Assembly: GCA_037379345.1 (NCBI GenBank)
Contig: CM074516.1
Span: forward strand, 30,541,626-30,605,625
DNA length: 64,000 bases
Source: Perna viridis
Lineage: Eukaryota
Direction of reading: 5' to 3'
Below, piece by piece: positions 16,101 to 41,049 of the stretch (its first letter is position 1; every line of letters starts with the position of its first letter). Below the pieces are notes generated by a model that ran no database searches, had not been told where the DNA came from, and saw only the letters and a program-made list of their open reading frames with translations. Both the position numbers and the translations under genes were made by a program.

Positions 16101-17040
16101 CCAGTATTGACACCATTACAGTTTAGGGGATCAAGTATTACAAGTATTAATTAAATTAGATTAAAAGAATAAATAAGGAAATAATCATGTAGCAAAGTAA
16201 TGCATTACATTTTTTTTTATATAATATCTTAGAAAAATCAAAATTTCATTTTTGTGGAATTTACCTATTGAAATTAAATGCATGTCAATCATGTTGTTTC
16301 AATAATTTGCTTAAGACATGCTTGTATATGAAATTTAGAAATAGTTAAACAAATTAAATATTACATCAGCGATAAATATGAATATGATAAAATAAAACTT
16401 GTTACTAACAATTTTGGCAAAACTTTTGACTAGACTTAAAAAAATTTATTGATACAATAAAAGTGGCAAATTCATAATTCTGAGTTTGAAATACACGTGT
16501 TAATATAACAAATCATACATATGAATAAAATTTATGGATCAAATAATCAGATAGTACTCTGGGGCCAATATAACCAGTTAGTGAGCCATCTCCTTCTCTT
16601 ATAATAAATCAAGATTGGGGGATATTACATATGAACATGTCAATCATGTGTCTATTGTCTTATCATAATCCATTTTGTGAGGATTGGAAACTTAAAATGA
16701 TACTAATCAGAGCCTTGTAGAAGCACTTTTCAAGGCAGGATTTGATGTCAATTTGATCATGTAGACTGTGTTAGCTAAATAATACAATAAATTTTGTACT
16801 CTCATCGCTGCCTTCAATTAGGCTGCAAGTAGGAAATTCATTAATAGCAAAAATATTAAACCACATGAAAGGAGGATCTCAAAGAGGAAGACTTGCACAT
16901 ATCAACTTTACACTTGTATCATATTATAGTTCTTTTAGCTCTAATTGTTTCCCTGTTATTGCCCTGATCAAAAAAATTATACAATGATTGACAAGTTGGA
17001 TATCATGTTACCTTTGATGTTTAACTTTCCTTTACACCTT

Positions 17041-17420
17041 GAGCAGATACCATTGTAATTTCCCCAAGTTTTTGTGCATTTTTTTTTCTGCTTTTGCATC
17101 TTAATGTCAAGAGAACTGAGCAGATACCATTGTAGCTTCTCAAAGTTTTTGTGCTTTTTATTTCTGTTTTTGCATTTTAATGTCAAGAGTTCTTAAATAA
17201 ACTGAGCAGATACCATTGTATCTCTCCAAGATTTTGTGCATTTTTTATTCTGTTTTTGCATCTTAATGTCAAGAGTTCTTAAAAAAACAATCACTTGTAA
17301 CAAGACCATAACTTGATTTTTAGCGCTAGAAATAGGAGTAAAGTCAGAGGGTTTTTTTGTAAGAAATAGGAGTAAAATTAAAGGGTTTTTCGCTGGAAAT
17401 AGGAGTAAAGTTAGAGGGGT
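17041..17420. repeat. Three ~80-bp tandem units followed by three ~33-bp units
   Basis: gagcagataccattgta...ttaatgtcaagag x3; gaaataggagtaaa x3. Confidence 0.8.
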
Positions 17421-18303
17421 GTTCATTACATTTTTAATACTCTGCTTACACAGTTTGAGGGATACAGGCTAAATCGTGTGTCTGTCAGTCATTATGCCAA
17501 ATGGTTAAAGTATGTGTTGAAACTTTTTATCTACAAGTTCGAACCATTGCCACCAGATAATTTTTTTTTAAATATTATATATGCCTTATGCATTTTTTGT
17601 AAAGCTCATCTAGTGTCTGTTGTTTAAAAAAGCTAGCTCATTGTTAGCATTGTAAATTAAGAATGGCTAAGATTAATAGGACCTTACATGAGTGAAAATT
17701 AAAGATAGGGCTATCTTTCACGATTATGAGAAGTTCAAGTCTTTTTCACAAGTGGAGTGTAGCATACCTGAGAAAAGACCAAGAATTTCTTTAACAAGTG
17801 AAAGATAACCTAATTTTTAATCTTCATCAAGTATAAGTACCTGTTTCTTCCATGAAAACATATATATTTTGTTTGCTTTCCCTAGGAGCGCCACCATTTC
17901 TGGAAACATAGTGGCGTCAAATTTTCTCTGCCTTTGATTTGAATATGTCTATGACTCTGTCATTTCAAGACATTTCATTGGTTTAAAGAACGAGTATATG
18001 GGTCTTCCTAACTGGCAAAGGGCTACTTCTGGAAGTCTAAAATAGCAGGGATTTAAATAAGCAGGGCCCCACTTGTCAATGGACCCTAAAATTTGGTGTG
18101 GGCTACTAAATGTCTTCAGTGATCATGGAGGACTTTACTTATTGGCTATTAAGCCCAAACCTTAGGTTAAAACCCTGAATAATGATTATATTGGTCATCT
18201 AGTATAGAATTTTTGTTGTAAAATTATCTGACTGCTCCTCCCTTCAAGTTAACAGACCTATATATTGAATGTTTAAAATTTCTCCTTGTTTGGTTTATTA
18301 CAG

Positions 18304-18426
18304 AGACTGATGTATGTGTAACAGGAGAACATGAATGCCACAAATTTGCTGATTGTCAGAGTTCTAAAGGAAGTTATAAATGTTCCTGTAAACAGGGGTA
18401 CAGTGGTAATGGATTTGACTGTCAGC
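18304..18426 (+). CDS. NELL: NELL-like exon, EGF domain (probably EGF3)
   Basis: ttacag| ... C|gtaagc, 123 nt, phase 1-1; ETDVCVTGEHECHKFADCQSSKGSYKCSCKQGYSGNGFDCQ; absent from the ORF track. Confidence 0.9.
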
Positions 18427-18525
18427 GTAAGCATACCTCAGTTTTTATTGACAAATTTTGCTGTTCCAACTTTGAATAATGTATACATTTAGTTCAAGGT
18501 TTTTTATTTAACAACATTATAGATT

Positions 18526-18929
18526 TTAAGTAGCTGTCTTTGTAAGAATCATGCAAAATCTGAAAAATGTGATACGCCCTAAAAAAGGCTACATATTTTT
18601 ATTTTTGTAATTAAGTTGTTTTATGGGTCTATACTATGAAATGTGTAATTATTCATTAAAATCTGCCTGTTCTTAGAAGATAATCAACATTGAAAATCCA
18701 GTAGATTCTATTGTATTTGAGTGTCATTTACAGAGTTATCTCCCTTAATTTTTAAATCTACATTGCATTCTTTACGATTTTTATCTCCTAAGAGCACGGG
18801 TTATATGAAAAACCACATGTTAATTTCTGTTTACTTTGACATTTCAAACAAAATATCAAAAATAAAAATATGTAGGCTTTTTACCCATGAATCACATTTT
18901 GCATGATCCTTAGCTGGAGTGCTACTTAA
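18526..18929 (+). mobile_element. ~400 bp TTAA-bounded MITE-like element, family A copy 1
   Basis: TIRs TTAAGTAGC-N8-TAAGrATCATGCAAAA at both ends; full-length similarity to 28846-29248. Confidence 0.85.
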
Positions 18930-19341
18930 TAATAACATGCTTAGGTAATATTTTATTTTGAAGACATTACTTACCACTGGCTTGGTCATTGTTGTTTTTT
19001 TTTGTTTCTTTGATCCTGCTAGGCTCTTTGTGGATGTAATAACATGTGCCCTGCTTCTGTGTCATGGAAATTAAATACTTTTGATAGAAATCCAATTATA
19101 TGTTTTGACTAAACTACAAAATCTATGAAAAACTTACAGCAAGTAAAACAATTAACCTCAAGGTATATAGCTGGTCTTCCCTTGATAGAATGACAATCAC
19201 CTGATGGATTGTCTTCAGTAGTTCACTAAACAATTGAGGAGGAGATCAAACTCTCTATTTTCCCTTAGGTATTTGAATCTATATATCTCATGGAAAGTTA
19301 AAATCTCCTTGTAAATTGTCCAGTTCACTAAACCAGGTCAT

Positions 19342-19490
19342 TAGGGCCTGGTTATTAAAAAGATTTATCCACTGGAGAAAAGTTATCCACTGGATAAATC
19401 TAGTTCAATCTATACAAGTTATCTACTGGATAGGTCTAGTACAATACATACAAGTTATCCACTGGATAAAGTTTGAACAACTGGGTCCTG
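19342..19490. repeat. Small degenerate MITE-like element with internal TTATCCACTGGATA repeats
   Basis: Four TTATCyACTGGA copies; imperfect inverted ends agggcctggtt / aactgggtcctg. Confidence 0.55.
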
Positions 19491-19812
19491 GTGAATATTA
19501 TTGAATCAAGAGAAGACCAACTTTATTATCCGAATTTAACTGTTATTAGGGCGTAGCCAGGCTTTCTTTGAAGTGGAAGATCATATTTGGCAAGGGGTTT
19601 AGGAGAATGCTCAATGCTGCCAGTGGAAACATGGAGCAAATCTCCAAGAAGCTCCCAGTGTTTGAGCATTTTAGACTCATAAAAGTGAGACAAAAATATG
19701 CTGAAAATGGCTTTATTTTGAGATAATTTTGTGGAAAATGTCTTTTTTTTATTTCATGATACTAGCAGTGACTGTGATCAGGATAATACTCAAATGAAGA
19801 AATTTGATATGT

Positions 19813-20066
19813 GAACAGGGTTATGTTGAAACAAGATTGAAGTCATCACTACAGAAGTTTTATGGTCGTCATCATGAACTCAAGGATCACTACGGTCTAT
19901 CCATCTGCACCATGAAAACTGATTTGTTCAGTGTGTCATAGTTTTCCTTTCCTCTTTTGACTGCCCTGGACTTGACAGGTGTTTCTAAATAAGCAGTGGA
20001 TGCTTACCTTACCAGTGCACCTGGTCCATGCTCTCATTTTTAGTGGAGTCTGAGTTTCTCATTTAC
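19813..20066 (+). mobile_element. Retroelement 3' remnant (RT-protein C-terminus plus 3' UTR)
   Basis: 19813-19941 reads EQGYVETRLKSSLQKFYGRHHELKDHYGLSICTMKTDLFSVS-stop; the following gtgcacctggtccatgctc...tttttagtggagtc recurs inverted at ~50405-50490. Confidence 0.65.
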
Positions 20067-22142
20067 TTGTGAAATAATTGCATCTCGTCTCGGGTTCCAT
20101 AGTTAACCTGATTTGTATGCTTTTGAAAAAGTAACTATTTATGCAACATATTTTTTCAACTTTTTTGGAAAGAGTCTGGTATACTTAAAATAACGAATAA
20201 TCTATCAAGTTTTAAAGTCATCATTGCAATCATCATCAATTTGGCAGATCATTATGGAAAACCCATTCATGTCTTGAGATCAACTAACTTTTAAATAGGT
20301 AATTATAAGTGCTGTTCATTCTGGGATTGTATGCCTGAGTCTGTATGTGTTCCTTTTATGAGGTCTGATTGTTTTTATCTGTTGTCTTCAAGCTCTTATA
20401 ATGACTATAACATACTAGCCAATGGTTAACGTTGACATTTGACCTCACGGGATTCAATCTTTATATTAGCTGACCTATTGCCCTTAAAACAACCATCTCT
20501 ATTCATCATTATTATTGTGAAAGCCCCTTTTGAAACAACCACTGGTCCACACACAGTATACATTGTATGTTGTTTTTTCAGACAAACTCGATCTGTCTTG
20601 AACTTTGACAAATTAATATCATTGAAAATGTTACCCATATTTCTATATGGTACCTTCATGAAAATGGGATTCCAAATTCAACAATATACCTGTGTCTTTA
20701 CTCAATGAGGACAAAGTAAATCAAGAAACAACATAGAAACCCCCGTACATGATCGCTTCCATTTATGAAATAATGCCTCATCTTCTTTTCTTCTCTACCT
20801 CTCTTTATTTTATTTTATTTCATGTTTTTTGGGGTTTTTTTTGCAAAACAAAGTGGAAACTCAGGTTTCTGAGCTTCTGCCTTGCTACCCGCCTGGTTAT
20901 ACTTGCTGTAATATTACATCATACATGTATTTTTTACAGTATTTGGTGAGCTTTCAGAGAAAGCATCTTAAATAAACATACTGGTTATTTCACTATAAAG
21001 CAAATTAAAATTATTCTATATGAGAAAATATTACTCCAGAGAGATATGAGGAGAGTACCTGTAACTTGATTTCCTATTGATATACAATGAAGAGTTTAAA
21101 TTGGCAACTTCTTTGATGCAGAATTCTCACTACTCATTTTGAAAAATCAATGCTCTGCACATTATCAGAATCAAATCATAAGTTGTAGATTACAAATTGT
21201 CTGTCACTTTCAGCATCCATGTTGATTCGAATTTCGATTAGATTTGTAGCATTTTGAAATGGACATTAGCTATCTCATGAGATGATCTTGATGACCAACT
21301 GCAGAAATGTCTGGTCACTTGAACATTGTACTGAAGTTCTGACAGAAATTGTGATTAAATATTCATTTAATGATTGTTGTGTTAACCATTTGTTATCTAT
21401 GAATAAGTAGTCTTTCAATTATATGGTTATTTTGTAGTAAATGTATTGGAGTATGAAAAACCCATGTCTTTTTATTAGTTATTAGTTCCATATAATTGCT
21501 GAATTAATGTAGAAATGTATGAAAATAGGAGAGGTGGTATGATTGCCGTTAAGATGGTCAACCAACCATTAATCAAACTTTACTGGTCACAACATTTTCT
21601 TTAATGATGGGCAAAACTCATACCATAAAGCAAGCTGTAGAAGGCCCCAAAAATAATTAAATGAAATTATTCATAAAAGACGAAGATTGACTTTATCTTC
21701 TGAAAAAATGTAAAAGGAATAACAATAAACATAAACCAAAACAAAGATGTGGTCATTTTCTGAATGCAGTAATTACTGCTTTAGTGTGAAAAGCTATTCG
21801 TAATGAACATATTCTATCTATAAACTTGTTTTCATAGCTTTTGTGGTCGTAAAGAGCTTGTGTCACTTTTTAGTTTAGAGCCTGTCACAAGTTGAGTGTA
21901 TAAACATATACAATGTACATTTTTCCAAGCAATTATATGCTCCCTACAGTGATGGAGCCAAAGGGTTCAGGGGTTTTGAATCCCCATTTTGTTGAAAAAT
22001 TCTGTTAATTTAATGTAAAATTTGGGCAAAATGAGCAAATAATAGCCTGTAACTCCTCTGGAATTTACCCTATATAACATTTTTTGGGGGGTTTGTTTTT
22101 TTTGTAGTTTTTATACGACCCTAAAAATTTGTGGCTGTATAA

Positions 22143-23696
22143 TGTTATGATGCAGCCGTTGTCTTGGTGTTGTGATGCAGTCGTTGTCTTGGTGTTATGA
22201 TGCAGTTGTTTTCTTGGTGTTATGATGCAGTCGTTGTCATGGTGTTATGATGCAGCGGTTGTCTTGGTGTTATGTTGCAGTCATTGTCTTGGTGTTATGA
22301 TGCAGTCATTGTCTTGGTGTTATGATGCAGTCGTTGTCTTGGTGTTATGATGCAGTTGCTTTCTTGGTGTTATGATGCAGTCGTTGTCATGGTGTTATGA
22401 TGCAGCGGTTGTCTTGGTGTTATGATGCAGTCATTGTCTTGGTGTTATGATGCAGCCGTTGTCTTGGTGTTATGGTACAGTCTTTGTCTTGGTGTTATGG
22501 TACAGTCTTTGTCTTGGTGTTATGATGCAGTTGTTATCTTGGTGTTATGGTGCAGTCTTTGTCTCGGTGTTATGATGCAGCGGTTGTCTTGGTGTTATGA
22601 TGCAGTCATTGTCTTGGTGTTATGATGCAGCCGTTGTCTTGGTGTTATGGTACAGTCTTTGTCTTGGTGTTATGATGCAGTTGTTATCTTGGTGTTATGG
22701 TGCAGTCTTTGTCTCGGTGTTATGATGCAGTCGTTGTCTTGGTGTTATAATGCAGTCATTGTCTTGGTGTTATGATGCAGCCGTTTTCTTGGTGTTATGG
22801 TACAGTCTTTGTCTTGGTGTTATGGTGCAGTCTTTGTCTTGGTGTTATGGTGCAGTCTTTGTCTTGGTGTTATGGTACAGTCTTTGTCTTGGTGTTATGG
22901 TACAGTCTTTGTCTTGGTGTTATGGTACAGTCTTTGTCTTGGTGTTATAATGCAGTCGTTGTCTTGGTGTTATAATGCAGTCATTGTCTTGGTGTTATGG
23001 TACAGTCTTTGTCTTGGTGTTATGATGCAGCCGTTGTCTTGGTGTTATGGTACAGTCTTTGTCTTGGTGTTATGGTACAGTCTTTGTCTTGGTGTTATGA
23101 TGCAGTCGTTGTCTTGGTGTTATGGTGCAGTCTTTGTCTTGGTGTTATGATGCAGCCGTTGTCTTGGTGTTATGGTACAGTCTTTGTCTTGGTGTTATGG
23201 TACAGTCTTTGTCTTGGTGTTATGGTACAGTCTTTGTCTTGGTGTTATGATGCAGTCGTTGTCTTGGTGTTATGGTACAGTCTTTGTCTTGGTGTTATGG
23301 TACAGTCTTTGTCTTGGTGTTATGGTACAGTCTTTGTCTTGGTGTTATGATGCAGTCTTTGTCTTGGTGTTATGGTACAGTCTTTGTCTTGGCGTTATGG
23401 TACAGTCTTTGTCTTGGTGTTATGGTACAGTCTTTGTCTTGGTGTTATGATGCAGTCTTTGTCTTGGTGTTATGGTACAGTCTTTGTCTTGGTGTTATGG
23501 TACAGTCTTTTTCTTGGTGTTATGGTACAGTCTTTGTCTTGGTGTTATGATGCAGTCTTTGTCTTGGTGTTATGGTACAGTCTTTGTCTTGGTGTTATGA
23601 TGCAGTCTTTGTCTTGGTGTTATGGTACAGTCTTTGTCTTGGTGTTATGGTGCAGTCGTTGTCTTGGTGTTATGGTACAGTTGTTGTCTTGGTGTT
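22143..23696. repeat. 25-bp minisatellite, about 62 copies
   Basis: Unit GTCTTGGTGTTATG(ATG/GTA)CAGTC(G/T/A)TT. Confidence 0.97.
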
Positions 23697-24427
23697 GCTT
23701 GTTGTTATCTCCATTGTCGTCTTCTATGGACACTCGGTTTCCATGTGATAACGTTAGTTGTGGTTGACCAATAGTTATGAAATTTTAATATTATTTTACT
23801 GACTACTAAAGAAAGGATCCTATATAATTTGGAGTTTTTTTTGAAGAAAAATGGGTCAAAAAGGGTAAAAATAGGTTTTTAAGTAAAACCCACGTAGGAT
23901 GTTTGTTTTTCTTCTGATTTGCATCGTTCTTTTTCATTGTGTTCCAAATTTAATTCTGGTGAAAAATGTACATGTATCAAGTTTTGGACCATTTTCAAGT
24001 TATATGGTGTTAAAGTTGGGCAACACCCAAAAATTCAACTTTTTTTTAGTCCAATTTTGAAATTTTATTTCCTATTGCATTCCTCATAAAAATCTCTGTT
24101 TTTCAATGATATTTCAGATATATCTTATGGTTTTTGAGTTACCGGGGGTCAAAGGGGCCACATCCCAAAAATTTGACTTTTTATTTTTATTCTGATTTAG
24201 AAAATTTTCAATTGAATTTCAGATTTTGTGTAATAAAGTATCCAAGCCATTAGTTGTGTTCATAATGAATGCTTCTTAAGTATTTTCTAGGAAGTTGTAT
24301 ACTCCTGTTTTTCCTTTTTTTTTGTTTTGTCTTTTTGTTCGTTTTTTGGTGACTGTTTATATAAACAACTACCTTAGAGAATTTTGAAAAATTACTCAGT
24401 AACCAGCAAGATTATTTTTATTTTCAG

Positions 24428-24520
24428 CAATATGTCCTGGAGGTTGTCTCCATGGAAAGTGTGTGTTTCCAAACGTCTGTGAATGTCGCCATGGTTACAT
24501 AGGTACCAATTGTGAACTTG
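24428..24520 (+). CDS. NELL: NELL-like exon, short EGF domain (probably EGF4)
   Basis: tttcag| ... G|gtgagt, 93 nt; PICPGGCLHGKCVFPNVCECRHGYIGTNCEL, same Cys spacing as the short NELL EGF4. Confidence 0.9.
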
Positions 24521-26238
24521 GTGAGTGAATTAATAAATAATAATTGTAAGAGAAAACAACACATATTATGAGTAAACAGGACAAAAAAGGATTCAGCAAT
24601 ACCTGATATTAGTTTAGATTTGTACAATATATGCATACTGGTAATATTTTGTTTAGTTGAAGCTCAAACACGAATTTGAATTGAATGATCATTTTGATAT
24701 TTAACATATATTCACATTTTTCCTTTTACTTCATCGAAAAATTTAATCCATTTTCAAAACAAAAATTCATAAAATAAGATAAAATTTATGTTATTATCTG
24801 ATTTTGAGTTCACCTTAGATGTGGGTTTGAGATTAGGATCCCTGTGTTGTATTCCATGTCTGAAACTCCACCCATCACACATTCCATGTCTGCAACTCCG
24901 CCCATCACAAGAAGGAACTTAATGGGCATAGAGAAAGCCTTTATCATTTTATACTGATGATGCAGATGGTCTCTGACATAAATTCCTTTTTTGAATGGGT
25001 TTTTTTATGAAATTAAAAGAAATTGTGTATCTATGATAAATACATAAGTGACACTTAATTTCAAGTACTAGTAACAAGTTATCAGATGTACAACTGCTGG
25101 ACATGATTATTTGTAAGACAATATAGAACCATTCACTTTGAGTCCTATAACTGTGTAATGTCTTACAAATAATCTTGAACTGCTTGTGTTCATCTTATAA
25201 TATATTTGTGTGATGTTGCAGTCATTTTCAGATTGTAGATTTTTTCTATTCTTTCTATAACACCTATTCAGTAAACTAAGTTTTCGTTGTCCACAGCAAC
25301 TGTACTGCATTTCAGTTTAGTCATTGATAAGGCTTCTGAAAATTAATACATCAGAATCTATGACAATGCTACTCTTGTGAATAAACTTCTTATAACAAGC
25401 AATCTTCTTTGGTTGATTAAAGGAGTCAATAGGAAGTCTTGTAGACAGCATTACTAGCAGATAATGTTTAAAACTCAATTATAGAAAAGCTGTTGTTGTA
25501 TTTGTGGAAAATTTGTTCAAGTCTCTGGCTCTTCACCAAATGAGCAGCAAAGAAAAAGCCTGATCTGATGTAATAACCATTTCCAAACCCTTGAAATGGT
25601 TTTTGGTATTATTCTGATAGTGTCAGTTTAAGGAGAGTATTATGTAACTTTCTCAGACTGTTTTTCTCCCATGCAGACGATTTGTCAAATATAATGGATG
25701 TTTACTGCTGACTTGAGATAATTTACTGCTATTCTCCTGGATATTACATAAGCATTAAAAATATCATGAGTCATACTTGCATTTCTCCATATATGGCAGT
25801 ATTCTGTCTTAAAATGTGTAATCTGTCTATTATTGCAATGTCTTATCTGCCAAAAATGCAAAGGGGAGATAACTCATTTTTCACACTCTGAATAACCAAG
25901 TAATATTGGCTAGAATCCTCTAAAAGTAGATTACAGTTTGATATTAGGCCAGTGAAAAGTATTTGCCATGATCTAAAATTTGTTGAATTAGATGATTAAA
26001 AGTCCAAATTAAGCTAGGATTAACAGCTAGTGCCTTTGCACGTACTTTTTCATCCTTTCAGAGATGTAATTAAATATATTTTCACAAAATAAAAAGAAAT
26101 CTTGATTTTTAGAAGTACAGTTATCTCTTATATACTATTCTCTGATGAATCAAACAGGAGAAAAAAATAGATTTTGTTGTAATTGTTCTACTTTAATTGG
26201 TATTGTTTATTGAAATGGAAAAAGGAGTGTGTTCCAGT

Positions 26239-27966
26239 TCATATTACTGTCAGTTTTCTAAACACAGCCCTACTATCAATTACAAGCAACTCATTGCTGT
26301 GTTTATCATAACAAACTAGCTGAGGACGATTTAAACCATCATCTGTATTTAAGAGAACTTGACAATTATCTCCATCTCTTGAAATAAGTAGCAATTTATG
26401 ATTTTTTCAACTGTCCACACAAATGTTCTGATGTTGGTCCATTGAAATACCTAATGGGCTGAACAAATTTTCATCCTCAAATTTTGAAATGACTCTGTTG
26501 TCAGAACCAAGGACCGTAATTGTATGCTTTGAATGACTTGTAAAGCATATTCTGATGCCATCGGTATTAATGTGAGAATGTCCATCAACAGACCCATCAT
26601 CATATACCTTGTCTATTTTTTCAGTTTGTATGTTAATTTTCATTATGCCTTTCTCAGATACACAAAAGAAAATTTGTTCAGAACTATGTGACAATCCACG
26701 GGCCACTTAATTTGTCTTAAGCTTTCTAATGACTTCACTTTTGTCAACAAATAAGATCAAAATAGTCTCTACTTTAGAATTGGAAACAGCAACTTGGTTC
26801 TCATTGATTACTGTTACATCATAAGCTCCCCCTTTAAAGAAGATTGATGATTTTAAAGAACCATTGGATTGCACTATCTTTACTTCATTATTTGTGTTAT
26901 CAGCAAACACCATTAGTCCATTTGGTAATGTACAACAACCGTAATACTGTCCAATATCAAATGTAAAGTTTTGTTTCAGTTTTAATTGTTTAAGGTGTAT
27001 GGTCTTAGCCCTCATCTGGGCACTATTTTGTTCATCTTTATTAATGTTCAAGTATATTGCCTTCTTTTCTTTTGTCACCTAAAATTCTACAAGAGATTTG
27101 ATTTGTGCTATTGCATTCCTTGCTTTGATGTTTTCTTCAATATGTATTTCTGTATGACTCATAACATCTTTGTAATTGTTTAAGAGTGTCCTCTGTTTCT
27201 CTTATTATGTCATTCTTTATCTGTTTAATGCTAATAAATGTTTGTAAGTTTGTTGCATGTTTTTCATTAAATATTCGAGTCCTAAAATGTTTCCAAGGTT
27301 TCTTTCCCTGTCTCTTAATTTTTTAATGCTGACTTTTCATTTGCATTTTCATTTGTAATGGAATCTAATTCTTTAAGTGTCTTAAATGGCCAGAATATAG
27401 CTGAGATATAGCTGCTCGGGTGTTAAACCCCAACAATCAATCAATCAATCATTTTCAAGACCTTTCAATTGGTCAATTAGTCTTTGTGTTATTTCTTTTA
27501 CTTTTGTGGATATTTCTTCTTTTCTTGTTTGCAGTTCATTAAGATTTTTGTCATTAGAATAAATAGCTTCCACAATCAGTTCCTGAGTTTCCCTTAAATC
27601 CTTCCACATATCCTCAACCATGGCCGATGTTTTGATGTTGTGAATAATTTCGTCAATATCAGGAGTGCCATCACATGTTTTGTGTGCTATAGCTTGACAT
27701 TTCTTACAAAGAGGATATTTATGTGACCTGCAGTAATATTGGTACTTTTCTTGGTGCTCTTCACAAAAGTGTTGAACATTCAGAACAAAGGGAGGTAACT
27801 TGCAATAATCGTCATAGGATATTATGGTATGGTCCCTTGTTGCTTTTTGCACTTGATGTTGTCTGCCACATTGTGCACAAAGAAACTCTTCACAGTGAGG
27901 GCACCACCATTCTGGAACACCATTTTTATTTTGCAGCTCACAGACACTGCAGTTATGGATCTCCAT
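26239..27966 (-). pseudogene. Intronless B-box/coiled-coil/beta-propeller (TRIM/NHL-like, RING-less) pseudogene nested in a NELL intron
   Basis: Two B-box-like Cys/His clusters (CSVC..WCPHCEEFLCAQCGRQH; CEEH..YCRSH...CKKC...HKTC), then coiled coil and propeller repeats ending ...DDGLNRPQLVCYDKHSNELLVIDSRAVFRKLTVI-TGA. Disrupted by a SINE tail (~27384-27450), frameshifts and in-frame stops at 27079-81, 26707-09 and 26407-09. Acceptor 6 nt before the ATG; AATAAA at 26206-26211. Confidence 0.88.
27384..27450 (+). mobile_element. 5'-truncated SINE tail inserted in the B-box pseudogene
   Basis: gaatatagctgagatatagctgctcgggtgttaaaccccaacaatcaatcaatcaatc matches ~4000-4058 and ~62435-62493. Confidence 0.85.
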
Positions 27967-28845
27967 TTATCTCTGAAAGAAAATTTTAAATTTTGATCTG
28001 TTGATTGAAGTGATATATGCTCATTTCCTGATGTTACAACTTTATATAAAATCTAAGTGGCTAAAATAAATATCATTTGTTGAACTTGGCTTTTTAACAC
28101 ATGTTTATGTACCAGAAAAAAATGAATTTATAGTAACACAATGAGGCACAATAAATACATCAAATGGAAGCCTTTTCTCCTAAAAAGGTTATTACTATAA
28201 TACATAATTGTTGTTAATTAGCAAATATTAGTAGTTCATGATGCTGAGGTTCATATAAGAATATATGGACTGGTTGATCACCCATAAAAATTAACTGGAC
28301 CCAGTCATAGCTGAATGAAGTCCATTGAACCCAACACTCCATATATTGCCATATGACCTGAAGTTTTATGAACTATTTGCTATATTATACATTTTATATA
28401 TATTTACTCTGCATCATTTGTGTGGAAGGAAGAATAAACATACATGACTTCTTATATTATGATGTCCTTTTCTTAACTTAATTTCCTACCTGTCTATATA
28501 ACATATGTGGACTGCTAGGTATATCTAAGGAAGTAAACAAATGACCATCTTTAAAGTATAATATTTTTATTCATTTCCTCATTGACAACTTCACTGTAGA
28601 AAATTTTACTTGTAATCAATCTTGAAAACTTGACAGACAGACAAATGATGACAGAATTTTAAACAGAAGCAAAGCAAACTTCAGAAAAAAGGTGTTGAAA
28701 ATTTTCCTACCAGTGTTGCCAATCTCACAGACCCAAATATTTTCTTATGGTAAAACCTTAATGAGAGAATTACAATCATCAGCATATATTATATCCCCAT
28801 AATTTAAAACTCCCTGATACTAATGAAGTTGAAGGATTCAATTTT

Positions 28846-29248
28846 TTAAGTAGCTGTCTTTGTAAGAATCAGGCAAAATCTGAAAAAATGTGATACACCC
28901 CAAAAAAGGCTACATATTTTTATTTTTGTAATTAAGTTGTTTTATGGGTCTGTATTATGAAATGTGTAATTATAGATTCAAATGTACCTGCTCTTTAGAG
29001 ATAATCAATATTAAAAATCTAATAGATTCTATTGTATTTGAGTGTCATTTACAGTTATCTCCCTTAATTTTGAATTTTACAGTGCATTCTATACAATTTT
29101 TATCTCCTATGAGCACAGTTTATATGAAAAACCAAATGTTAATTTCTGTTTACTGAAGCATTTAAAACAAAATATCAAAAATAAAAATATGTAGGCTTTT
29201 AACCCATGAATCACTTTTTGCATGATTCTTAGCTGGAGTGCTACTTAA
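28846..29248 (+). mobile_element. Family A MITE copy 2
   Basis: Same TIRs and body as 18526-18929. Confidence 0.85.
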
Positions 29249-32039
29249 AATCTTTAAATTGATTTTCATTCAGTTTAGAACTGGCTTCTTTCAAAGGTCT
29301 GAATTGCTCACATAGTGAAATTAGAAACCCGGTTAGGTACTGTTATTTGATCAAGCGGAATGAATAGAAAGTCATTCCTGCCAAGTTTGCTAAATAGTTG
29401 AGATATATGTTGAAATGTGTTTCCACATTGGATTCAGTTGCAACTGAGAGTGGCTGTAGCCACTTGCTGAACCACCTGAGCCAAAAAAGAGGATTTTTTG
29501 TAGAGGGCTTTAAGGTCAATAACCCTTTTATGTTATAAAACATTGGCACATAGAAGGATGTTTTTTGTCTTCAACTACTTCCAATTTCCAACAGTTTCCT
29601 AATTTGTTTAAAAAGGGGTCAATAATAAACATTGACTTCAACTTAGTATAAATTACTTATTTCTCATGTCTAAACCCAATTATAGTTTATACCACCTTTT
29701 TTGTTGTCAGAACCTTGTCAAACCTTTCACGCAATCCGAATTTAAAGAGCTACATCAAGTTTGATTATGGTGTCCATACTTATCAAACTGTTTAGGGTTA
29801 GACATCTATGATTATATCAAGCTGCAAAGCATTTCATTTGACAGAGAAATGAACCTATAATTTTTTAGCTGGTAGATTGATTTTTTTTACTTGCTGTATG
29901 TACATCGAGAAGATATATCTACATGTATGCAACATTTTCATCTGAAAAACTTGTGACAAAGATTCTGTTGTAACATAAAATAAGCAAACCATGATGAGAA
30001 ACTTGTATTCTTTCACATTTAGTTGACGTGGTCTATTCACATGAAGTAGAAGTGGTCTATTCAATTTATTTAGATTTTCTTGGATCAGAATCAGTTCATT
30101 GACTTGAGATACACATGGTCTTGTAACTAAAGCATACTTCAGCATAGATAATTTACACTTACTTTCATGCCATGTATCCATAAGTGGCAAATCTATTCCA
30201 GTAACAATAAAATTACCCTTTTTAAATTGTCATGCAACTGTCATGTATTCTAGTAGATACTACATGTGTCTGTAGGTGCGACAATAATGTAAAGACGCCA
30301 AACCTATTGTCAACAGTTTTTTCAAGTGTAAAATTGTCAGAAATATGTACAGTGATATAAATCATTTTGGTAAGAACTGAGTACCACCTCCTAACTTTCC
30401 AAAAGTCATGACATGAAAAACATGTTTCTAGAGATGCCTTGAGTGCTTTAGGTCTACTCTATGGGTGTACCTGATTGCACAGACCAGGTAAACTGTCTAT
30501 TTATGTTACTTTTCTAGGTAGATTTGGATTGTTATACTGAATGCACTGAATCTGTCTTTATTCTTGTTTGTTATGGTAACTTTGATTTCACCATTAATCA
30601 TACAAAGGCTATGGAAATAACCATCCAAAAGCAGACATCACCTTGAATCAGTTTTAGTTCAGTTTTAATCCATGTAAAAGGAATACAAGCCAAGAGCAAA
30701 CAAACACTTCAATCACAAAGTGGTTTGGATTGTGGCGGTTTCCCTGATATTTGGCATTAAACAATCAGAGACTTTTTAATTACTACTTTCTTCAGTGTTT
30801 GTGTTCACTTGATTTTTAACCCAATTGCAGGAAAGAGTTTCAGCATATAAATTGTCAATCCAGTTACTTTCACCAAGGAGATTTGCTGCTACATATATAC
30901 CCCAAGACTTTCAGACCTACTTCAACCTTATCCCTAGTCATTATTCTAACATATTTGACAGAAGTTTGTTTCCTGCAAAGCTTTTAAACATGGAAATTTT
31001 TCTAAAATTAAGCAAAATTAAAGACCTACATACAAATTCTGCTCAAGAACAACTTATAATCAGTGACCATTAGCTTACATTAGATCATACTGTTGTTTCC
31101 TTCATATCTTTTATGGAGCTATTTAATCATTGATGAAAGTTCTGGACAACCTTCTTGTATGTCTAGAATTTCAAAAAAAATACTCCATTGAAAAAGTCTT
31201 TAATGGAAAATTAACGTCTTTAATTCATATTTAAGGTATTACATTCTCAGATTAGTATCTGCATTGTGTAACTTCTTCCACCTTTTCTTTTCATGGTCAC
31301 TATTAAGTATCATAAATTGACATTATAGCACTAGATGGATCTCTCTTAGTCATTTCGGTAAAGACCCATTATTCCAAATTTGATGAAATGTTTACTATGA
31401 GATGAAGTTTGATTGCATTGCAAAATGTCATATAAGTAATAAATATAATGTCTTGGGAAATGAGTGGCTAGACACTATAGCAGAATATTTGTCGGCAGTC
31501 GTGAATAAAATCAATCATATCTTCCAAACTCTGTCAAATCTTAGACTTTTCACAATCAAATTTACTATGAATCATAAGGTGTATTTTTTTGTTGTTTTTA
31601 GTTAATTTTTCCAATTTTGTAAGTTGGTTCCAGAAATGAGTCAGCATGACCTTTCCTTTACCTTGAACTAAGGATGTTGATAAATAGTTCCATATTAACT
31701 GATATATACATACTCAAGGGGAAATAGAATCAGAAAGATGAATGTTTTTGGTTTTTATTAATAATTTATATGTTGTTAAATGCAATGTATAACAATAGCA
31801 TTCTAGTATCCATAACATACAAAGTAGTTGAACCCTTTGCTGTTTAATTTTGAGTTTATGTCTAAACATAGGCAGAATTCTTTAAGGGAGTTAGTAGGGG
31901 TGACATTTGGACACAATTTTCCTGAATTTAATAGACTTAACGACTTTTATGCTCATTAATCATTTAATGCTTTTTGTATGACTGCAAAAATTCAGTTATA
32001 TAATGGTATCATGCAATTTCAGCATTGGCATTGTAGATA

Positions 32040-32575
32040 TTTTGTTTCCAGACAATGAATAATTTGAGTATAAGTGTATAGATCTTCAAAATTTTACCAC
32101 AAGGTGCTATACCACAAAAGGAAGGCTGAGATTGATTTTGAGGAGTGTTGCTCAAACTGTTCAGGAACTAATGGCAAAAAAGTGGTCAAAAACAAGCATT
32201 TCATTATTTCTAGACAATAACTTGACTATAAGTGACAGTATATTTTGTAAAATTGTATCACCAGATGCCATACCACTAAGGAATGGTGTGATTTATTTTT
32301 TTGGATTGTAACTTGTGCTGTTTAGGGTTGAGTAGCCAAAAAAGGAGTCAAAAACAATCATTTTCCTGTTGTTTGGGTAATAACATGACTATTCAGGATT
32401 GGATGTCTTTGAAAACGTACTACAAAGGAAGGCTGGGATTGTTATTGGTCAAATACTTATCCTGTGTCAAATAATCAAAATTCAGAGTAGTATCAAGCTT
32501 GAATGATGTGTCCGTATTTGCCCATACCGGTACTTTTCAGGGTTCTACATATGTGATTATATAGCTGCACCCTAC
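32040..32575 (+). repeat. Degenerate dispersed element with ~165-bp internal tandem units
   Basis: Recurring acaataa..tgactataagtg / aaaggaaggctg.gattg / gtcaaaaacaa.cattt; 3' part (atcaag.ttga....gtgtcc.ta.tt) also at ~29733-29830; similar sequence at ~23735-23880. Confidence 0.55.
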
Positions 32576-32722
32576 ATTTTACATGTATGACTTATTTAAG
32601 GGAAGTGAGTGCATTGAGAGATAAGGTTTGTCATAACCTCCGAGCCCCCTGGATAGAGGCTTGTTCCTTTTCAACAATAACAATTAAAATTAAACGTACT
32701 TTGTATCATTTTTTATTACTAG

Positions 32723-32863
32723 ATATTGACGAGTGTGTCATAGGTATTTCCAAGTGTGCTGTCAAAAGTGTATGTATCAACACGCCAGGATGGTATAAAT
32801 GTGATTGTATCGAGGGGTACCACAGCAGATGGCCAGATAATAACTATGGTAGTCTGTGTGTTG
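32723..32863 (+). CDS. NELL: NELL-like exon, Ca-binding EGF domain (probably EGF5)
   Basis: actag| ... G|gtaggt, 141 nt; DIDECVIGISKCAVKSVCINTPGWYKCDCIEGYHSRWPDNNYGSLCV, with the NELL-type CINxPGWYxCxCxxGYH pattern. Confidence 0.92.
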
Positions 32864-35800
32864 GTAGGTAATATTTTATAGATCTTCCTCGATGTTTATT
32901 TTTTTTTTTATAACAAATGGATAGTAACTAGTCTTATCAAAATTAGACCTTCTAATTGTTCAATATAGCCACTGCATGTTCATGTATGATCTAACAACAC
33001 TCTATTTCACTTCCTGTTCAGATGACCTTTCTTGTTAGTCACTTAGTTTCAGCTTTTGTGATTGTGAAAGCATTATTCAAAGGGAAAATCTAATGATTTT
33101 GAAAAAGTCAAAATTGTCGCAGAATTACCTTTTGGTGTCATAGAAATATTAGGACATCATTATAAACTTTCAATAGGAGGAGAGTTCAGAGTGGAAACAA
33201 TTAGAAAATATATTATCTTCATCAATAAGCATTCACTATTGTGAATCAATCTGTTAGACTGTATATTAACTAGAAGTAGTATGTGTATGGTAGTGTAAAG
33301 CAAATGAATATAGTTTATTTCATTTTATTTCTTCAAGATTCATTTCTAGCCTACCAGCAAAAACTATGCTAAGTGTCTGGTTTTGTTCAATAACAATAAT
33401 GCCTTGTTGGCTGTGAAAGTGGAAGACTATCCTGTCACCCCTCCAATCTGGCTATATCTTATATTTTATATCATTTCAAATAGATAAAAAGTCTTTGCTG
33501 AAAAAGATAATGTTTCCACTATAACGGTATTTCCCAATGAATTATATTTTTTCTTTATTTCATTGTTGATATAGCAGATAATATTTGATAAATGTGATTT
33601 TCATAACTAGAATTAATACTTTTAGAACAGAACTAATGTCTTTTTCTTGAAACAATAGCATACTGATTCTTGTGATGTTAGAGACTGCTCTATTGACCTC
33701 AAATGTGCTCAGTACTGGGGATATTATTATCTGATATCAGACCGTTATCACTAATGTTAATGCTGGTCTGGTCTACATCAGGAAGTCTTTGGAACAAGTT
33801 CCAGCATTATACAATTTTCAGATCTGCATAGGTCCAGGGGAAACATTGCATAACCTTATTGTCTGGATTATACAACATTGTCAATATGCTATAAATGTTT
33901 GCTTTATGACTTATGATAGGACTATAGGAACAGAAAGGGGTTATTTCTCCCCAAAACTTTCTGCACTCTGGGGAAAAAAGGCATAAGACATAAATTTTTA
34001 CAATCATATAAGGAGAATGGATATGGAGACAACACCCTCAGATGGATGAACAATGTCAGCTCAGTGCCATTTATGGGTCTTCAGTGAACAATGACGAAAC
34101 TCTCACATTACTGTGAAGGCTGCAGCTGGTCCCAAAACAACATTATACACAGGTACAGCAAAATAGTTGCCTCTATGTATACTCCAGCAACATAAAAGCA
34201 AACTGAAAGTGAAAAGAAACAATACAAACAGAAGCCAATATTGTGATCACAACCCTCCCCCTATTAAAACTGGCCTCTGTGGAAAAATGTTATGTAGTTA
34301 ATAATTCTATATAAGTACACTGTTCAAAATAAAAAGGGGAGATAACTCCAAGGTTGTGTGTTTCTATCATTTCTTGATTAAAATAATTATTGTGTCACAT
34401 TAAGCCTCACAATCATGGTTTGCATTTTTGTTGACAAAGGGGTAAATAAACATTTTTGAAACCATTGGATCAAACTTAAGCTACTTACAAAAATTAATAA
34501 AATGGAACAAGGAGAAAGAAAATAACCCACTTATGCCACAGTTTTAATAAACACAGGTTACTGGAAAACCACAAAAACAGCTTTTCACAAATAAAAGTAA
34601 TTTCACAATTTTTATTTCTGGTATATTGCAGTTTACCCAGTAATCCTGTTACAGTATAAAAGTAGAAGAGTGTTAGATCACTAGAAGTAATTTTCTTATG
34701 CCTGAACTAGTTGACCTGATTTATCACAATGACCCTAGTATTATATAAGAGAGGAATTATGATTTATCTTGGGAATCCTATATACTGGTTAATTGTCTGG
34801 TCATAGTATCATTTGTTTCCTTATTTACCATCAGATTTACATTATTAATGGAATTTGTGTCTTGTGTGAAAATGACTTTCATATAGAGTAGAGATGGACA
34901 AGAATATTTGTTCAGAATTACAGCACATATAACAATGATGTTCAGGTGGAAGAGTGGGTAATAACAGTCTGCTGATGAACTTTCTCAAACAGTTGACTGG
35001 ACAACTGAAAAGGGATTTAAGCTTCAAACAATTCAACAGATATTGATAGAAAATTGAAATCTCTTTCTCAGTTATCCAGTCAAACACCTAAGAAAGCTCA
35101 TTAGGTGATGGTCATTTAATCAAGGAAAGACCAACTCTAACCCCTGAGACCTGAACATCATCATTGTATAAGCTATAAATACAAGCTCTTAATCACCTTT
35201 TTTTTACCCAGGTCTATCTTTATTTTGGGGGATTTGAGTGAGGAATGTGGATAAAAAAGTGCAATACAAATCATTGCTTCCCTGCTGATTTTTCTTTGAG
35301 AAAGAAACTTACATTGATAACTGTCTGATTTAAACATTTGACAACATGGTTAAAAATGAAAAAAAAATGTTGCCTTTTCATGTGGATGGTTCTTGAGCAT
35401 TTATTTTTGCCTGCATAACCAAAGGTGATAGCATGTCTATATCTTTCTGCCTGTCTGTCCGTCATGATGTTTGTGTTAAGGGTAACTCAAAAACCATAGA
35501 ATCATTATTATTCAAACTTCGCACCATGTGTACTTCCTATTATGGCGATATTTAATAAATGTTTTCATACATTTTCAGCATTTTGAAATTAGCTATTTTT
35601 GTCACACTATGTTGTGAATGGTACCTACTTTGTGTAAACTCTAACTGAAACAATACTCAACATATATATTTTCTTAGGAATTATCCCTCATTCAACATTG
35701 ATAAATGGCTTTCTTGTTACGAAATGGATATAAACTTGATACAAATTATTTTGCTGTACATGTATTATAACCTAAAGTTCAAAAGGTTGTTAGGTTTAAA

Positions 35801-35939
35801 AAAACATGGGCATTATGATGTAAAAACATTAACATCTCAGTCAGATGTTTCTACTATGAAAATAATATTTTTCTAAGATTTCAAAGTGCAGCATTTAACA
35901 AAGCAATAATATATACTAACATATCTTCAACTCTAAGAA

Positions 35940-36341
35940 TTAAGTACCAGTCCATATAAAATTCAGACACTGTCCCTATTGAAGTGATTCATGATGAAGA
36001 ATAACCCACCAATCTAAGAATGCTTTTTCTATCTACATATGCTATATTTTTAAGAAACAGTTGTACTTTCCATATTCAGATCTGCACTTTTGAGAAAATC
36101 ATATATTTATCTCCCACTAAAATCAACCAAATCGAACAAAATCAGGGACGATAACTCTTGCAAAGTGCTGACTTCATGTACAATCTATATAAATTTTATT
36201 TTAAAAGTGCAACACCCAAATGAAAAAAGACTGGTTATGTGGTCTATGACAGTTTCTGAACAAGAAATAAAAGTGAATTTGGTGGGTTTTTGACATGCAT
36301 GAATCACCTCCAGTCTGATTTTTGCAAAGACTGATACTTAA
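35940..36341 (+). mobile_element. ~400 bp TTAA-bounded MITE-like element, family B copy 2
   Basis: Imperfect terminal inverted repeats TTAAGTAcCAGTC...TCAGAC / GTCTGA...GACTGaTACTTAA. Confidence 0.78.
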
Positions 36342-37518
36342 TTTATATTCAAGAGTCCTTGAAAATAAAAATGCATAATCAAAGAGTAATGCAAGGTAAT
36401 ACTGCATATAGATATGATCTTGTGCCATATTTTTCACCTTTGAAATTGATTTTTAATACTTCGAAATGAATTTTGAATTGCATCAATTTATGTTAAGGAC
36501 AACCACAAAGAAACTGGCACAGTTACATATTGTAAGAACAGATAAAGTACTTGAGATGGTGCTAACAGAGCACTATTTAACCAGTCTGACTGCCTGCACT
36601 ACTTCTGAAATAAAAACAATATTGAGATATTATAGTTCAAAGAAAAATATATATCATTACATTACATTAAATGTATTAGTCCTGAAAAATAAAACAAATG
36701 TTTGGTGCATGTATTTTTTATTTTTTAATATTATTTTATGATAACTTTTAATTATAATTTTGTAATCTTAATATTGTAAGAAAAATATATTTGAGCAAAC
36801 AGGGTGAGTGTTTCACATTAGAACTTAAATTCTGATCTGATATGGAAGCCTTAAAAATAAAAAAAATCTTGTTTGCAAAATCACTGAAATCTGTGAGCCA
36901 CAGTTGGTTCCTGGAAGCCTTCATAATTACTAGACTCCAACCTATATTGGTAACAGACTGTTTGTAGTAAGCACAATCAATCATTCATTTCAGTATGAAA
37001 CAAGGAGATATTTACCTCTACGGGGGTTGTGTGTTATCCACAACAAGGCCATCAATTGACATAAACACTTGAGATTCCTCAATTTTTTTCTAGATCAAAG
37101 AAAAACTGACAAAGATTAAAGGATTTTGCCACCAGTTTGGCATTGAAATGTGTGAGAGTGGATAGAGACCTGTCTGATGATATGAAACAGAAGTTTCTTC
37201 TCTTATTCAAAGGGAGATAACTCAGTTTTTTCAAATGTAAATTATGTTAGGTTTTTATTCACCATTTATGTTGTTGTTTTCATTTTGTTTACAAGAAAGC
37301 TCTGGAAATATGGGCATTAAAAAACATGGTGCCTTAAATAGGGTTTGTATATTATTTTGGATAACTACACTTTACAGGCACTGAATGAGCTTATAAGGTA
37401 TATCTTGAATAGTGCCATCGTATCATTTGTGTCTTATAGTTGACAAAATTCTTGAAATCTAACCTTTCCTTGAACTTTATGCAGTTTAAAAATAAAAAAT
37501 CTCATTTCACTTTTTTAG

Positions 37519-37635
37519 ATATAAATGAGTGTATTGGTGAGGGAGGTGGTCATAGTTGTCATGAATCAACAGAATGTGTAAACACTGAGGGTGGATATCA
37601 ATGTGTGTGTAACCTGGAGACACCATGTGTTGGAG
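37519..37635 (+). CDS. NELL: NELL-like exon, EGF domain (probably EGF6); 3' end and donor are tandemly amplified
   Basis: ttttag| ... G|gtaagg, 117 nt; DINECIGEGGGHSCHESTECVNTEGGYQCVCNLETPCVG. Confidence 0.88.
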
Positions 37636-38106
37636 GTAAGGAATGTGTGTGTAACATGGAGACATCATGTTTTGGAGGTAAGGAATATGTGTGTGTAACC
37701 TAGAGACACCATATGTTGGAGGTAAGGAATGTGTGTGTAACCTGGAGACACCATGTGTTGGAGGTAAGGAATGTGTATGTAAGCTGGAGAAACCATGTGG
37801 TGGAGGTAAGGAATGTGTATGTAACCTGGAGACACTGTGTGTTGGAGGTAAGGAATGTGTGTGTAACATGGAGACACCATGTATTGGAGGTAAGGAATGT
37901 GTATGTAAGCTGGAGACACCATGTGTTGGAGGTAAGGAATGTGTATGTAACCTGGAGACACTGTGTGTTGGAGGTAAGGAATGTGTGTGTAACCTGGAGA
38001 CACCTTGTGTTGGAGGTAAGGAAGGTGTGTGTTACCTGGAGACACCATGTGTTGGAGGTAAGAAATGTGTATGTAACAAGGAGACACCATGTGTTGGAGG
38101 TAAGGA
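37600..38106 (+). repeat. 42-bp tandem repeat x12 spanning an exon end and its splice donor
   Basis: Unit AATGTGTGTGTAACCTGGAGACACCATGTGTTGGAG|GTAAGG; unit 3 is 44 bp. Confidence 0.96.
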
Positions 38107-38738
38107 AAGAAAAACAAGATGGAGGTCTTTAGATAGTTAACTCTGGATGGAATCCATCTGATTGTGTCTTAATGTTATTAACTTGTTACAATACATGTAT
38201 TATAATTTGTTCATTCCTGTCATTTTATTACAATTCTAGCCTTTAAAACAAACAATAACTACTTTCATGAACAAACACTTTTTCATTTCATTTTTTTTAT
38301 AAATGCAATAGGGGATACATGTACTAGTATTTCATGTGAACATTTTTCATATATTTGTAGATCACAATGTGGACATATTTGGTAGAATGAAAACAAGATC
38401 TAACTTTCTACAATTTTAAGATAATTTTCAAAACTTTCTTAGCTAACATTTCAAAAACATGTATTTTGGAATTGTACAAAACAAAAATGGAACAGTTTTT
38501 TTAGACAAAATAAATCGCAGATCTCTACATTATCTGCAATATATACATTTTCTTATTATTTTCACCACCAGATTTCATTTTCTCATGCTGCTGCCATGTT
38601 ACTGAAAAATCGATGGAATGAATTTTCTAACTGGACCATTACTAATAAAAATCTGCCTTGCTTTGTCTCTGGACTTGCACGACTGTTTTCATTCTGTATA
38701 TTTAACCCACTTCTATTGAAATCAATCTATATTTACAG

Positions 38739-38821
38739 ACTGTATGAAGTATGGCGAGTACCACAGGAACAATACAAAATGGATGGACGATGAAGATAAA
38801 TGTATACAGTGCTCCTGTAAG
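38739..38821 (+). CDS. NELL: NELL-like exon, start of a VWC domain
   Basis: ttacag| ... AAG|gtatgg, 83 nt, phase 1-0; DCMKYGEYHRNNTKWMDDEDKCIQCSCK. Confidence 0.88.
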
Positions 38822-39491
38822 GTATGGATGTATACAAATATATGTATACAGTGCTCCTGTAAGGTACAGATATGTACAATAATAAGGTATTGTAAAAAAA
38901 TACAGCATGTTAGTGTCTGAGGCTGAGGAATGGGTTATGGATGATTTTATATACTGTTCCTGTGTCAGGAATGAATAAATATAAATATATAATGTCACTG
39001 TGTAAGGTATCTGAAGCTTCTATTTTACTTCAATATTAGCTTGAGTCAAATTTAATGTCACCATATTTCCAACAAATTATATCAATATATGTACTTAGAA
39101 AGTAAAAGAACAAAGACTAGACAAAGAAAATACAGATAAATTGAGGAACAACATGTACCAATAGGAAACACTGAGAAAACTTAGGTATATCATGAGCAAC
39201 TGAATGCAATGGCAGTGTAACATTTATGCCAGAATTTTTTTATTTTTTATTGTAATATTTGAACAAGATTTATAAATTCTACAACTTGTAACTATGAGAT
39301 AGATATTGTGTTTTTAAAGCCTATGTTTTGTACTCAGAGACATGTATTTGAAAACAGGTTTGAAGAATAGAATGAAGTATTCCTATGTAGCTGTTCTTTT
39401 GAATAATTTTAATTTACAGGCGGAAGTAAACATAGCAGGACAAAACAAGAGTTACGAACCAAGAAATTATTTTTATTTTCTTATTTATTAG

Positions 39492-39662
39492 AATGGTGTC
39501 ACAACATGTCATAAAAAGTCATGTGACTGCTCTGCTCCTGATGTTGACCTCGAATGTTGTCGTCATTGTGATGAGAAATCTAAATGCCAACATCAACTTG
39601 TATCAACATACCTCAACCATGGACAGAAATGGGTGTTTCAATGTCAGACTTGTGAATGTTTG
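39492..39662 (+). CDS. NELL: NELL-like exon, VWC domains
   Basis: attag| ... TTG|gtaagt, 171 nt, phase 0-0; NGVTTCHKKSCDCSAPDVDLECCRHCDEKSKCQHQLVSTYLNHGQKWVFQCQTCECL. Confidence 0.92.
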
Positions 39663-39818
39663 GTAAGTATAGACATAAAATACCAATGGACTAGTGTAAA
39701 AGTTCCTTGTAACTATAGTTATCTTAAAACATCCAAAATTTGGGGATTATGTGTGCTGTTTATTTCTTTTTTATCTTTGAATATTGTTGTTTTCATATTT
39801 TCTGTTTGATTTTATCAG

Positions 39819-40055
39819 GATGGTGAAATAGACTGCTGGCCAGTGACATGCCCAACATTAGCCTGTCATGTGACTGTCCAGGAACCTGAGGACTGTTGTC
39901 CACGATGTGTTGATGATAATCCATGTCTGTCTCTAACCCATGATGTTGGAGGAACAGACAACTCTGCATTGACATGTCTGTATGAAGGACACAGATATAT
40001 TCATGGGGATCAGTGGTTCCTCAGAGAGGATTCGTGCACAGCTTGTGAATGCAAG
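39819..40055 (+). CDS. NELL: NELL-like exon, VWC domains
   Basis: atcag| ... AAG|gtaaga, 237 nt; DGEIDCWPVTCPTLACHVTVQEPEDCCPRCVDDNPC...CLYEGHRYIHGDQWFLREDSCTACECK. Confidence 0.93.
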
Positions 40056-40419
40056 GTAAGAAAGATCTAGGAAAAACTTAATTGTCAAAATTCTTTTATT
40101 TTTCCTCATAACATTGCATGTTTTCCTTCATTACAAAATAAAGTATAGGTCAATATAAGTTTGCTTAAGTATTTAGTGTGCTTTGATGGATTTTAGGGAA
40201 ACTTGCACAGATTGAAGCTTGAGGGACATTGAAGACTTCTATTGATTTATGAGGCCAGTGGATCATTTATTATGGTCACAATCAGGGTGTATCACCCAGT
40301 GAGGTTACATACTGTTCTAGTTATTTCTATTTCCGTTTTATGTATTGAAAAACCAGAAAAAATGTACTTACAATTAATGAAACTTTATCATATTTTTTAC
40401 ACTTTTTTTCACTTTTTAG

Positions 40420-40515
40420 GTTGGCCATATCTGCTGTCTGTTTAACCACACCTGTACCTCTCTACCTGACCAGTACCATGACAAAGTCACCTTTGACCCT
40501 TATTATATACCTTAG
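40420..40515 (+). CDS. NELL: NELL-like last coding exon
   Basis: tttag|GTT; VGHICCLFNHTCTSLPDQYHDKVTFDPYYIP-TAG; matches the NELL C-terminal xGHICC motif. Confidence 0.9.
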   Translation, partial: VGHICCLFNHTCTSLPDQYHDKVTFDPYYIP

Positions 40516-40774: not shown

Positions 40775-41049
40775 TATACTAATGACTGAGTATAGCCATG
40801 TTATAAGTTAAATAATAGTTATACTAATGATTGAGTATAGCCACATTATAAGTTAGATAATTGTTATACTAATGATTTAGTATAGCCACATTGTAAGTTA
40901 GATAATTGTTATACTAATGATTGAGTATAGCCACATTGTAAGTTAGATAATTGTTATACTAATGATTGAGTATAGCCACATTGTAAGTTAGATAATTGTT
41001 ATACTAATGATTGAGTATAGCCACATTGTAAGTTAAATAAGTGTTATAC
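40775..41049. repeat. 45-bp tandem repeat x6 downstream of the NELL stop codon
   Basis: Unit TATACTAATGATTGAGTATAGCCACATTGTAAGTTAGATAATTGT. Confidence 0.93.

Follow-up and report, generated by a model that had tools for sequence, protein, structure and literature searches.

Minisatellites that lie across an exon–intron boundary have been described in amphioxus and human. In the human F7 gene, the 37-bp VNTR of IVS7 presents 5-9 identical donors, of which only the most upstream is used, and the first donor alone is also used in LMNB2 and PDGF (accessible text of PMC1557585). According to the same text, the minisatellites in IFI6 (6-16) intron 2 and CBS intron 13 differ in that the next two donors are used too. 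The amphioxus "mirages" are boundary-spanning minisatellites of variable unit number that leave regular splicing undisturbed, and the accessible text of PMC3087553 places them in Adh3 and the globins BflGb6 and BflGb9, citing Canestro et al. 2002. In the literature searched, mostly non-subscription papers without their supplements, we found no NELL or mussel case of a boundary minisatellite, and the accessible part of PMC10078293 held nothing specific. NELL/Nel proteins themselves have the domain order LamG, two VWC, six EGF, then VWC (accessible text of PMC7083938).

The array described here lies in a NELL gene of Perna viridis. We analysed a window of 64 kb, which sits within a 50-Mb contig of a 723-Mb genome, together with four RNA-like runs from four studies (X11, X12, X13 and X16), whose type is guessed, as no run containing the region is on record as RNA. 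Three features of the gene frame the array.

4213..40515, + strand: portion of NELL that the window covers, with EGF2 at 4213, EGF3 at 18303, EGF4 at 24428, EGF5 at 32723, EGF6 at 37519, VWC exons at 38739, 39492 and 39819, and a predicted last exon at 40420 (profile and homologue matches)
37519..37635, + strand: NELL EGF6 exon of 117 nt, the last 36 nt of which are the repeat template, ending at donor 1 (Pfam, NELL2 alignment, RNA-like contigs in X12, X13 and X16)
38739..38821, + strand: next exon, the start of VWC3 and the splice partner of EGF6 (Pfam VWC, E = 0.0078; bin depths in X12 and X16)

From sequence alone, the gene is NELL and the exon at 37519-37635 is EGF6, as the original prediction had it. 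The exon (phase 1-1) matches Pfam EGF_CA with an E-value of 1.7e-5 and aligns through its final residue with the last EGF of the NELL2 chain 6pog_B (210-243), and 127 homologous proteins, fetched via a VWC exon, are colinear with the exons that the window contains for EGF (five) and VWC domains. A further homologue search with the 79-aa VWC exon against longer targets gave 3 candidates, none at E ≤ 0.001. Upstream of the window, loci L002-L005 contain LamG (Laminin_G_3, E = 1.6e-6 at L004:3231-3479), two VWC domains in four half-exons, and EGF1. In the region after LamG, where the coiled coil itself is only putative, homologues match exons at L003:1884-2015 and L003:3693-3869. The six EGF domains are flanked by VWC domains in the order seen in homologues, including NELL1 and NELL2, with the last VWC being short and without a separate score. 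With the exception of EGF6, the ends of the NELL exons are predicted.

At the 3′ end of the EGF6 exon, we resolve a tandem array and, at the next exon, a smaller duplication of the same period.

37600..38107, + strand: 42-bp minisatellite of 12 copies with 12 GAG/GTAAG donors (TRF, motif positions)
37636..37677, + strand: unit 2, with a donor at 37677/37678 that is alone among the extra donors in being in frame and stop-free (+14 aa, 3 Cys; frame computation)
37678..37721, + strand: unit 3, 44 nt, in which a 2-nt insertion near 37685-37688 and G>A at 37702 give TAG at 37701-37703 (unit comparison; apparently common to the X11 allele)
37750..37800, + strand: probable one-unit deletion in the X11 allele, a unit 4/5 hybrid with its breakpoint at 37750-37758 (contig differences, jump models)
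38796..38879, + strand: 42-bp duplication (two copies) spanning the donor of the next exon, with an extra donor after 38863 that is in frame, open and adds 3 Cys, and decayed copies to ~39010 (TRF, sequence)

TRF reports the array with a period of 42, 12.0 copies, 89% matches and a score of 816. Eleven of the 12 units are 42 nt long and unit 3 is 44 nt. The array starts 36 nt inside the EGF6 exon, and thus its first unit spans the exon–intron boundary; the repeat unit consists of the 6 first intron nucleotides followed by a copy of the 36 last exon nucleotides. GAG/GTAAG terminates every unit (12/12), and all 12 + strand occurrences of GAGGTAAG in the window fall inside the array. The first intron bases of the donors (37636, 37678, 37722, 37764, 37806, 37848, 37890, 37932, 37974, 38016, 38058 and 38100) are identical to the twelve positions originally predicted, and the unit consensus reads GKECVCNLETPCVG in the frame of the EGF6 exon, in agreement with the expectation of a three-cysteine, in-frame step per 42-bp unit. 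Units diverge from one another in a patterned way by 0-8 substitutions, with units 6 and 9 being identical and unit 4 having 36 nt in common with unit 1. A Pfam search with the array reading frame found no match, Rfam gave 0 matches across the 64-kb window, and a genome search, which skips simple repeats, returned no second genomic copy of the array region.

The predicted products differ by donor. An in-frame, stop-free junction with the exon at 38739 is possible from donors 1 and 2 only, so that both the acceptor position and the restriction to two productive donors stand as first proposed; the donor 2 product gains 14 residues, including 3 Cys. The unit-3 stop had been attributed to the 2-nt insertion. 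The insertion and the TAG at 37701-37703 are both present, but the stop also needs the G>A at 37702 (CTAG versus the consensus CTGG), without which the shifted frame would be open but would not match the phase of the next exon. This TAG is the first stop met by the products of donors 3-12. The shifted frame had also been described as open through units 3-12, and such a frame exists, although units 4-12 are open in two of the three frames rather than in one.

The array is an exon–intron-boundary minisatellite of the mirage or F7 IVS7 kind. As in the amphioxus mirages, it is an invertebrate boundary duplication whose units keep the splice signals, with regular splicing apparently persisting; haplotypes vary in unit number in the mirages and may do so here, as X11 suggests. 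It differs from them in animal group and gene, and in having a unit that is divisible by three and mostly exon, which places donor 2 in frame. With F7 IVS7 it shares a first unit across the boundary and identical pseudo-donors behind it, the most upstream donor apparently being the one used here as well; copy number is polymorphic in F7 and probably variable here. The F7 unit comprises 4 exon and 33 intron bases, however, as opposed to 36 and 6 in NELL, and first-donor use was established in F7 by 50 constructs (accessible text of PMC1557585), whereas here it is suggested by shallow contigs. The many reiterated donors behind an authentic one also recall the IFI6 and CBS minisatellites, except that the next two donors are used there and none is seen here, at low depth.

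We consider it very probable that the array is neutral, a by-product that splicing removes from the first donor in nearly every case. A short tandem duplication straddling the exon end would be its origin, and unequal exchange or slippage would have expanded it and may still alter its copy number. The spliceosome would pick the most upstream of the identical donors, giving the normal protein; donor 2, if used occasionally, would insert 14 residues, and donors 3-12 would yield stop-containing RNA to be cleared by NMD, an established pathway. The RNA-like contigs are consistent with first-donor use. In three runs from three studies, a contig covers the EGF6 exon with 0 mismatches (X12 rec 16, X13 rec 24 and X16 rec 32), and the match stops at 37633-37635, with a two-base play because AG flanks the intron on both sides. 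In these runs, depth multiplied by length shows that exon pieces account fully for the bin 37500-38049, and therefore no array contig lies there. The unmatched remainder of the exon contigs, 53 letters in X12 and 46 in X16, accounts in turn for the bin 38600-39149 (0.299 versus 0.30 and 0.184 versus 0.18, respectively), and from the coordinates and bin depths we infer a junction from donor 1 to the exon at 38739 in both runs. The exon contigs thus appear to leave at donor 1 in 3/4 RNA-like runs, at a low depth where minor forms are undetectable: the evidence consists of assembled contigs of depth 2-3, and such contigs drop rare variants. Products of donors 3-12 that are removed by NMD would be absent from shallow steady-state contigs even if made.

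The fourth run bears on copy number. X11 has 0 contigs on the EGF6 exon and one 198-nt contig inside the array (37650-37847), which differs from the window at 11 positions without a gap. Of 1,672 single-jump models compared, the one in which a unit is lost, with its breakpoint at 37750-37758, predicts a total of exactly 11 differences; 6 of the 11 in this single contig are listed, all of them matched by the model, and the other 5 are deduced. At this breakpoint the identity between units 4 and 5 extends over only 8 bases, and a chimeric join of 31-letter words would need more. We infer that the X11 allele has one unit fewer and has units 2-3 as in the window, including the insertion and the stop. 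Because the contig fits a shorter allele that has the unit-3 indel as well, the array is unlikely to be an assembly error, and its copy number likely varies between alleles. The variable-copy array of the original prediction is upheld to this extent, indirectly, by the single RNA-like contig that is consistent with the loss of one unit.

The NELL array is also one of many in a repeat-rich genome. We surveyed EGF, LDLa and TSP1 exons in 120 genome stretches picked for those families; after 194 of 625 domain matches without scored splice sites were dropped, the 431 remaining exons reduced to 413 non-redundant ones, all of them sequence-based predictions from few large genes. An array starting in the exon crosses the donor in 13/413 predicted exons, and an array crosses the acceptor in 5/413, where random placement gives ~6 per side and at least 13 donor-spanning arrays in 3/500 shuffles. 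Donor-spanning arrays have periods of 31-142 nt, and the two that are divisible by 3 (2/13, p = 0.14) do not amount to a depletion of in-frame periods. By family, donor versus acceptor arrays number 13 versus 0 in 221 EGF exons (10 versus 0 of 215 with paralogues collapsed), 3 versus 5 in 109 LDLa exons, and 0 versus 0 in 89 TSP1 exons. A stricter first pass over 185 exons only had given 13 versus 2. We do not claim a general donor-over-acceptor bias, as the EGF excess was not replicated in LDLa or TSP1 and the pooled 13 versus 5 has a binomial p of 0.10. EGF loci carry 2.9 arrays per 10 kb, covering 6% of bases. TRF found no arrays near the nine upstream NELL exon matches, and the gene is therefore not generally decorated. 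Two observations from this comparison run counter to a neutral reading, namely that donor-spanning arrays exceed the number given by random placement and that the adjacent exon also bears a 42-bp in-frame donor duplicate; the shared period at two adjacent NELL exons may be chance.

Several repeats observed alongside are recorded here, with positions on the stated strand. Large donor-spanning arrays of 8-18 copies and periods of 43-98 nt occur at L053 (+) 4634, L084 (+) 3890, L066 (+) 5733, L062 (+) 3620 and L126 (-) 5361. Acceptor-spanning arrays of up to 14.5 copies occur at LDLa exons in L101 (-) 3379, L112 (-) 5541, L114 (-) 7541, L141 (-) 5579 and L145 (-) 767, and in L112 a predicted exon carries arrays at both ends. 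In the stretch G000:C7:21374000-21420000, excluded from the survey, a ~1.3-kb segment carrying two TSP1 exons is repeated in tandem as ~30 nearly identical copies. Within the window, further minisatellites lie at 10737-12354 (38 bp x 43), 22143-23696 (25 bp x 62, with strong G/T skew) and 40775-41049 (45 bp x 6), none of them overlapping a mapped exon. The intronic stretches 27050-27600, 28846-29249 and 35940-36322, where summed contig depth reaches thousands to tens of thousands in each of X11, X12, X13 and X16, are abundant transcribed repeats with no Rfam match.

Among the alternatives to a neutral by-product, the one that survives best, which we nonetheless think unlikely, is that the array acts as a set of decoy donors, an idea of the original prediction: later donors would take a measurable share of splicing, the shift and stop in unit 3 would have their products destroyed by NMD, and the level of NELL would be set by copy number. 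The GAG/GTAAG core common to all 12 donors and the position of the stop at 37701, upstream of four exon junctions, would suit such a mechanism, as would the apparent retention of the shift and stop in both alleles seen. Extra donors are active in IFI6 and CBS, yet the F7 experiments in mammalian cells found use of strictly the first functional donor (both in the accessible text of PMC1557585). The end of the X11 contig at 37847 coincides exactly with a donor, which has a chance of ~1 in 42 and could reflect a branch into a spliced form, but the piece may equally be pre-mRNA or DNA carry-over, and the contig rows listed for the four RNA-like runs include no spliced product of any later donor. 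A broader form, in which the array is a heritable expression dial with leaky donors feeding NMD, the unit-3 shift serves as a safety catch against Cys-rich inserts, and the array is one of many (~3% of sampled exons) acting genome-wide, strikes us as quite improbable.

A second alternative, likewise raised in the original prediction, is that donor choice or copy number extends the link between EGF6 and VWC3 by 14-residue, Cys-rich steps and so produces isoforms; we give this very little credence. The period of 14 codons and the open, in-frame donor 2 speak for it at first sight, but since the unit is mostly copied exon and its length happens to be divisible by three, a 14-codon step and an open frame are expected, and 341/413 control exons yield an open frame when a 36+6 unit is taken from them. 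The ten 42-nt copies contain 15 distinct substitutions, 12 nonsynonymous and 3 synonymous, which is in line with the neutral expectation from a synonymous share of 29/123 possible unit changes, and the probability of zero stops among the 15 is 0.42. We thus see no sign of coding constraint on the units. With these neutral proportions, no array contig in X12, X13 or X16, and a frame broken in unit 3, the array does not behave as a coding VNTR whose units are kept in the mRNA under coding constraint.

The spacing of cysteines in homologues also points to donor 1. Of the 127 fetched proteins, 40 matched the probe exon, and removal of 12 that start too near and 7 without an upstream EGF motif left 21, one of which is probably not NELL. 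Splicing from donor 1 gives a C5-C6 spacing of 5, a C6-to-next-Cys spacing of 3, and 36 residues to the second exon of VWC3. This 5/3/36 combination is the commonest among the homologues (10/21), and the 3-residue spacer is found in 19/21. Their EGF6-to-VWC3 lengths range over 26-42 residues, and none (0/21) reaches the 50 residues of donor 2 or has additional cysteines at the link. The homologues do tolerate 5-11 residues between C5 and C6, and the next exon has its similar 42-nt in-frame duplicate, both of which would favour a tunable linker. Against this, both alleles seen permit one extra step only, by donor 2; the step would leave a secreted, disulfide-bonded protein with three more cysteines, an odd number; and no contig displays the insert. 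Finally, we regard it as extremely improbable that the array or its unit-3 indel is an assembly error, since, error-prone as tandem arrays are and though the copy-number evidence is an RNA-like contig rather than DNA runs, the units differ in a patterned way, the gap-free contig of another sample and study across units 2-6 needs the 44-nt unit (26/36 mismatches out of register), and nine DNA-like runs from three studies contain at least half of the sampled words of 37400-38900.

Read as an ordinary mirage, the NELL array is a further case outside chordates and offers a natural test, in another animal group, of the first-donor rule established for mammalian F7. Our survey suggests that, in this genome, such arrays occupy the donor of ~3% and the acceptor of ~1% of the sampled modular exons. 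This matters for gene annotation, as open frames continue through an array, and also bears on how intron gain is modelled. Should later donors prove leaky and dependent on copy number, the length of the repeat would act as a rheostat on NELL, a neural guidance gene.
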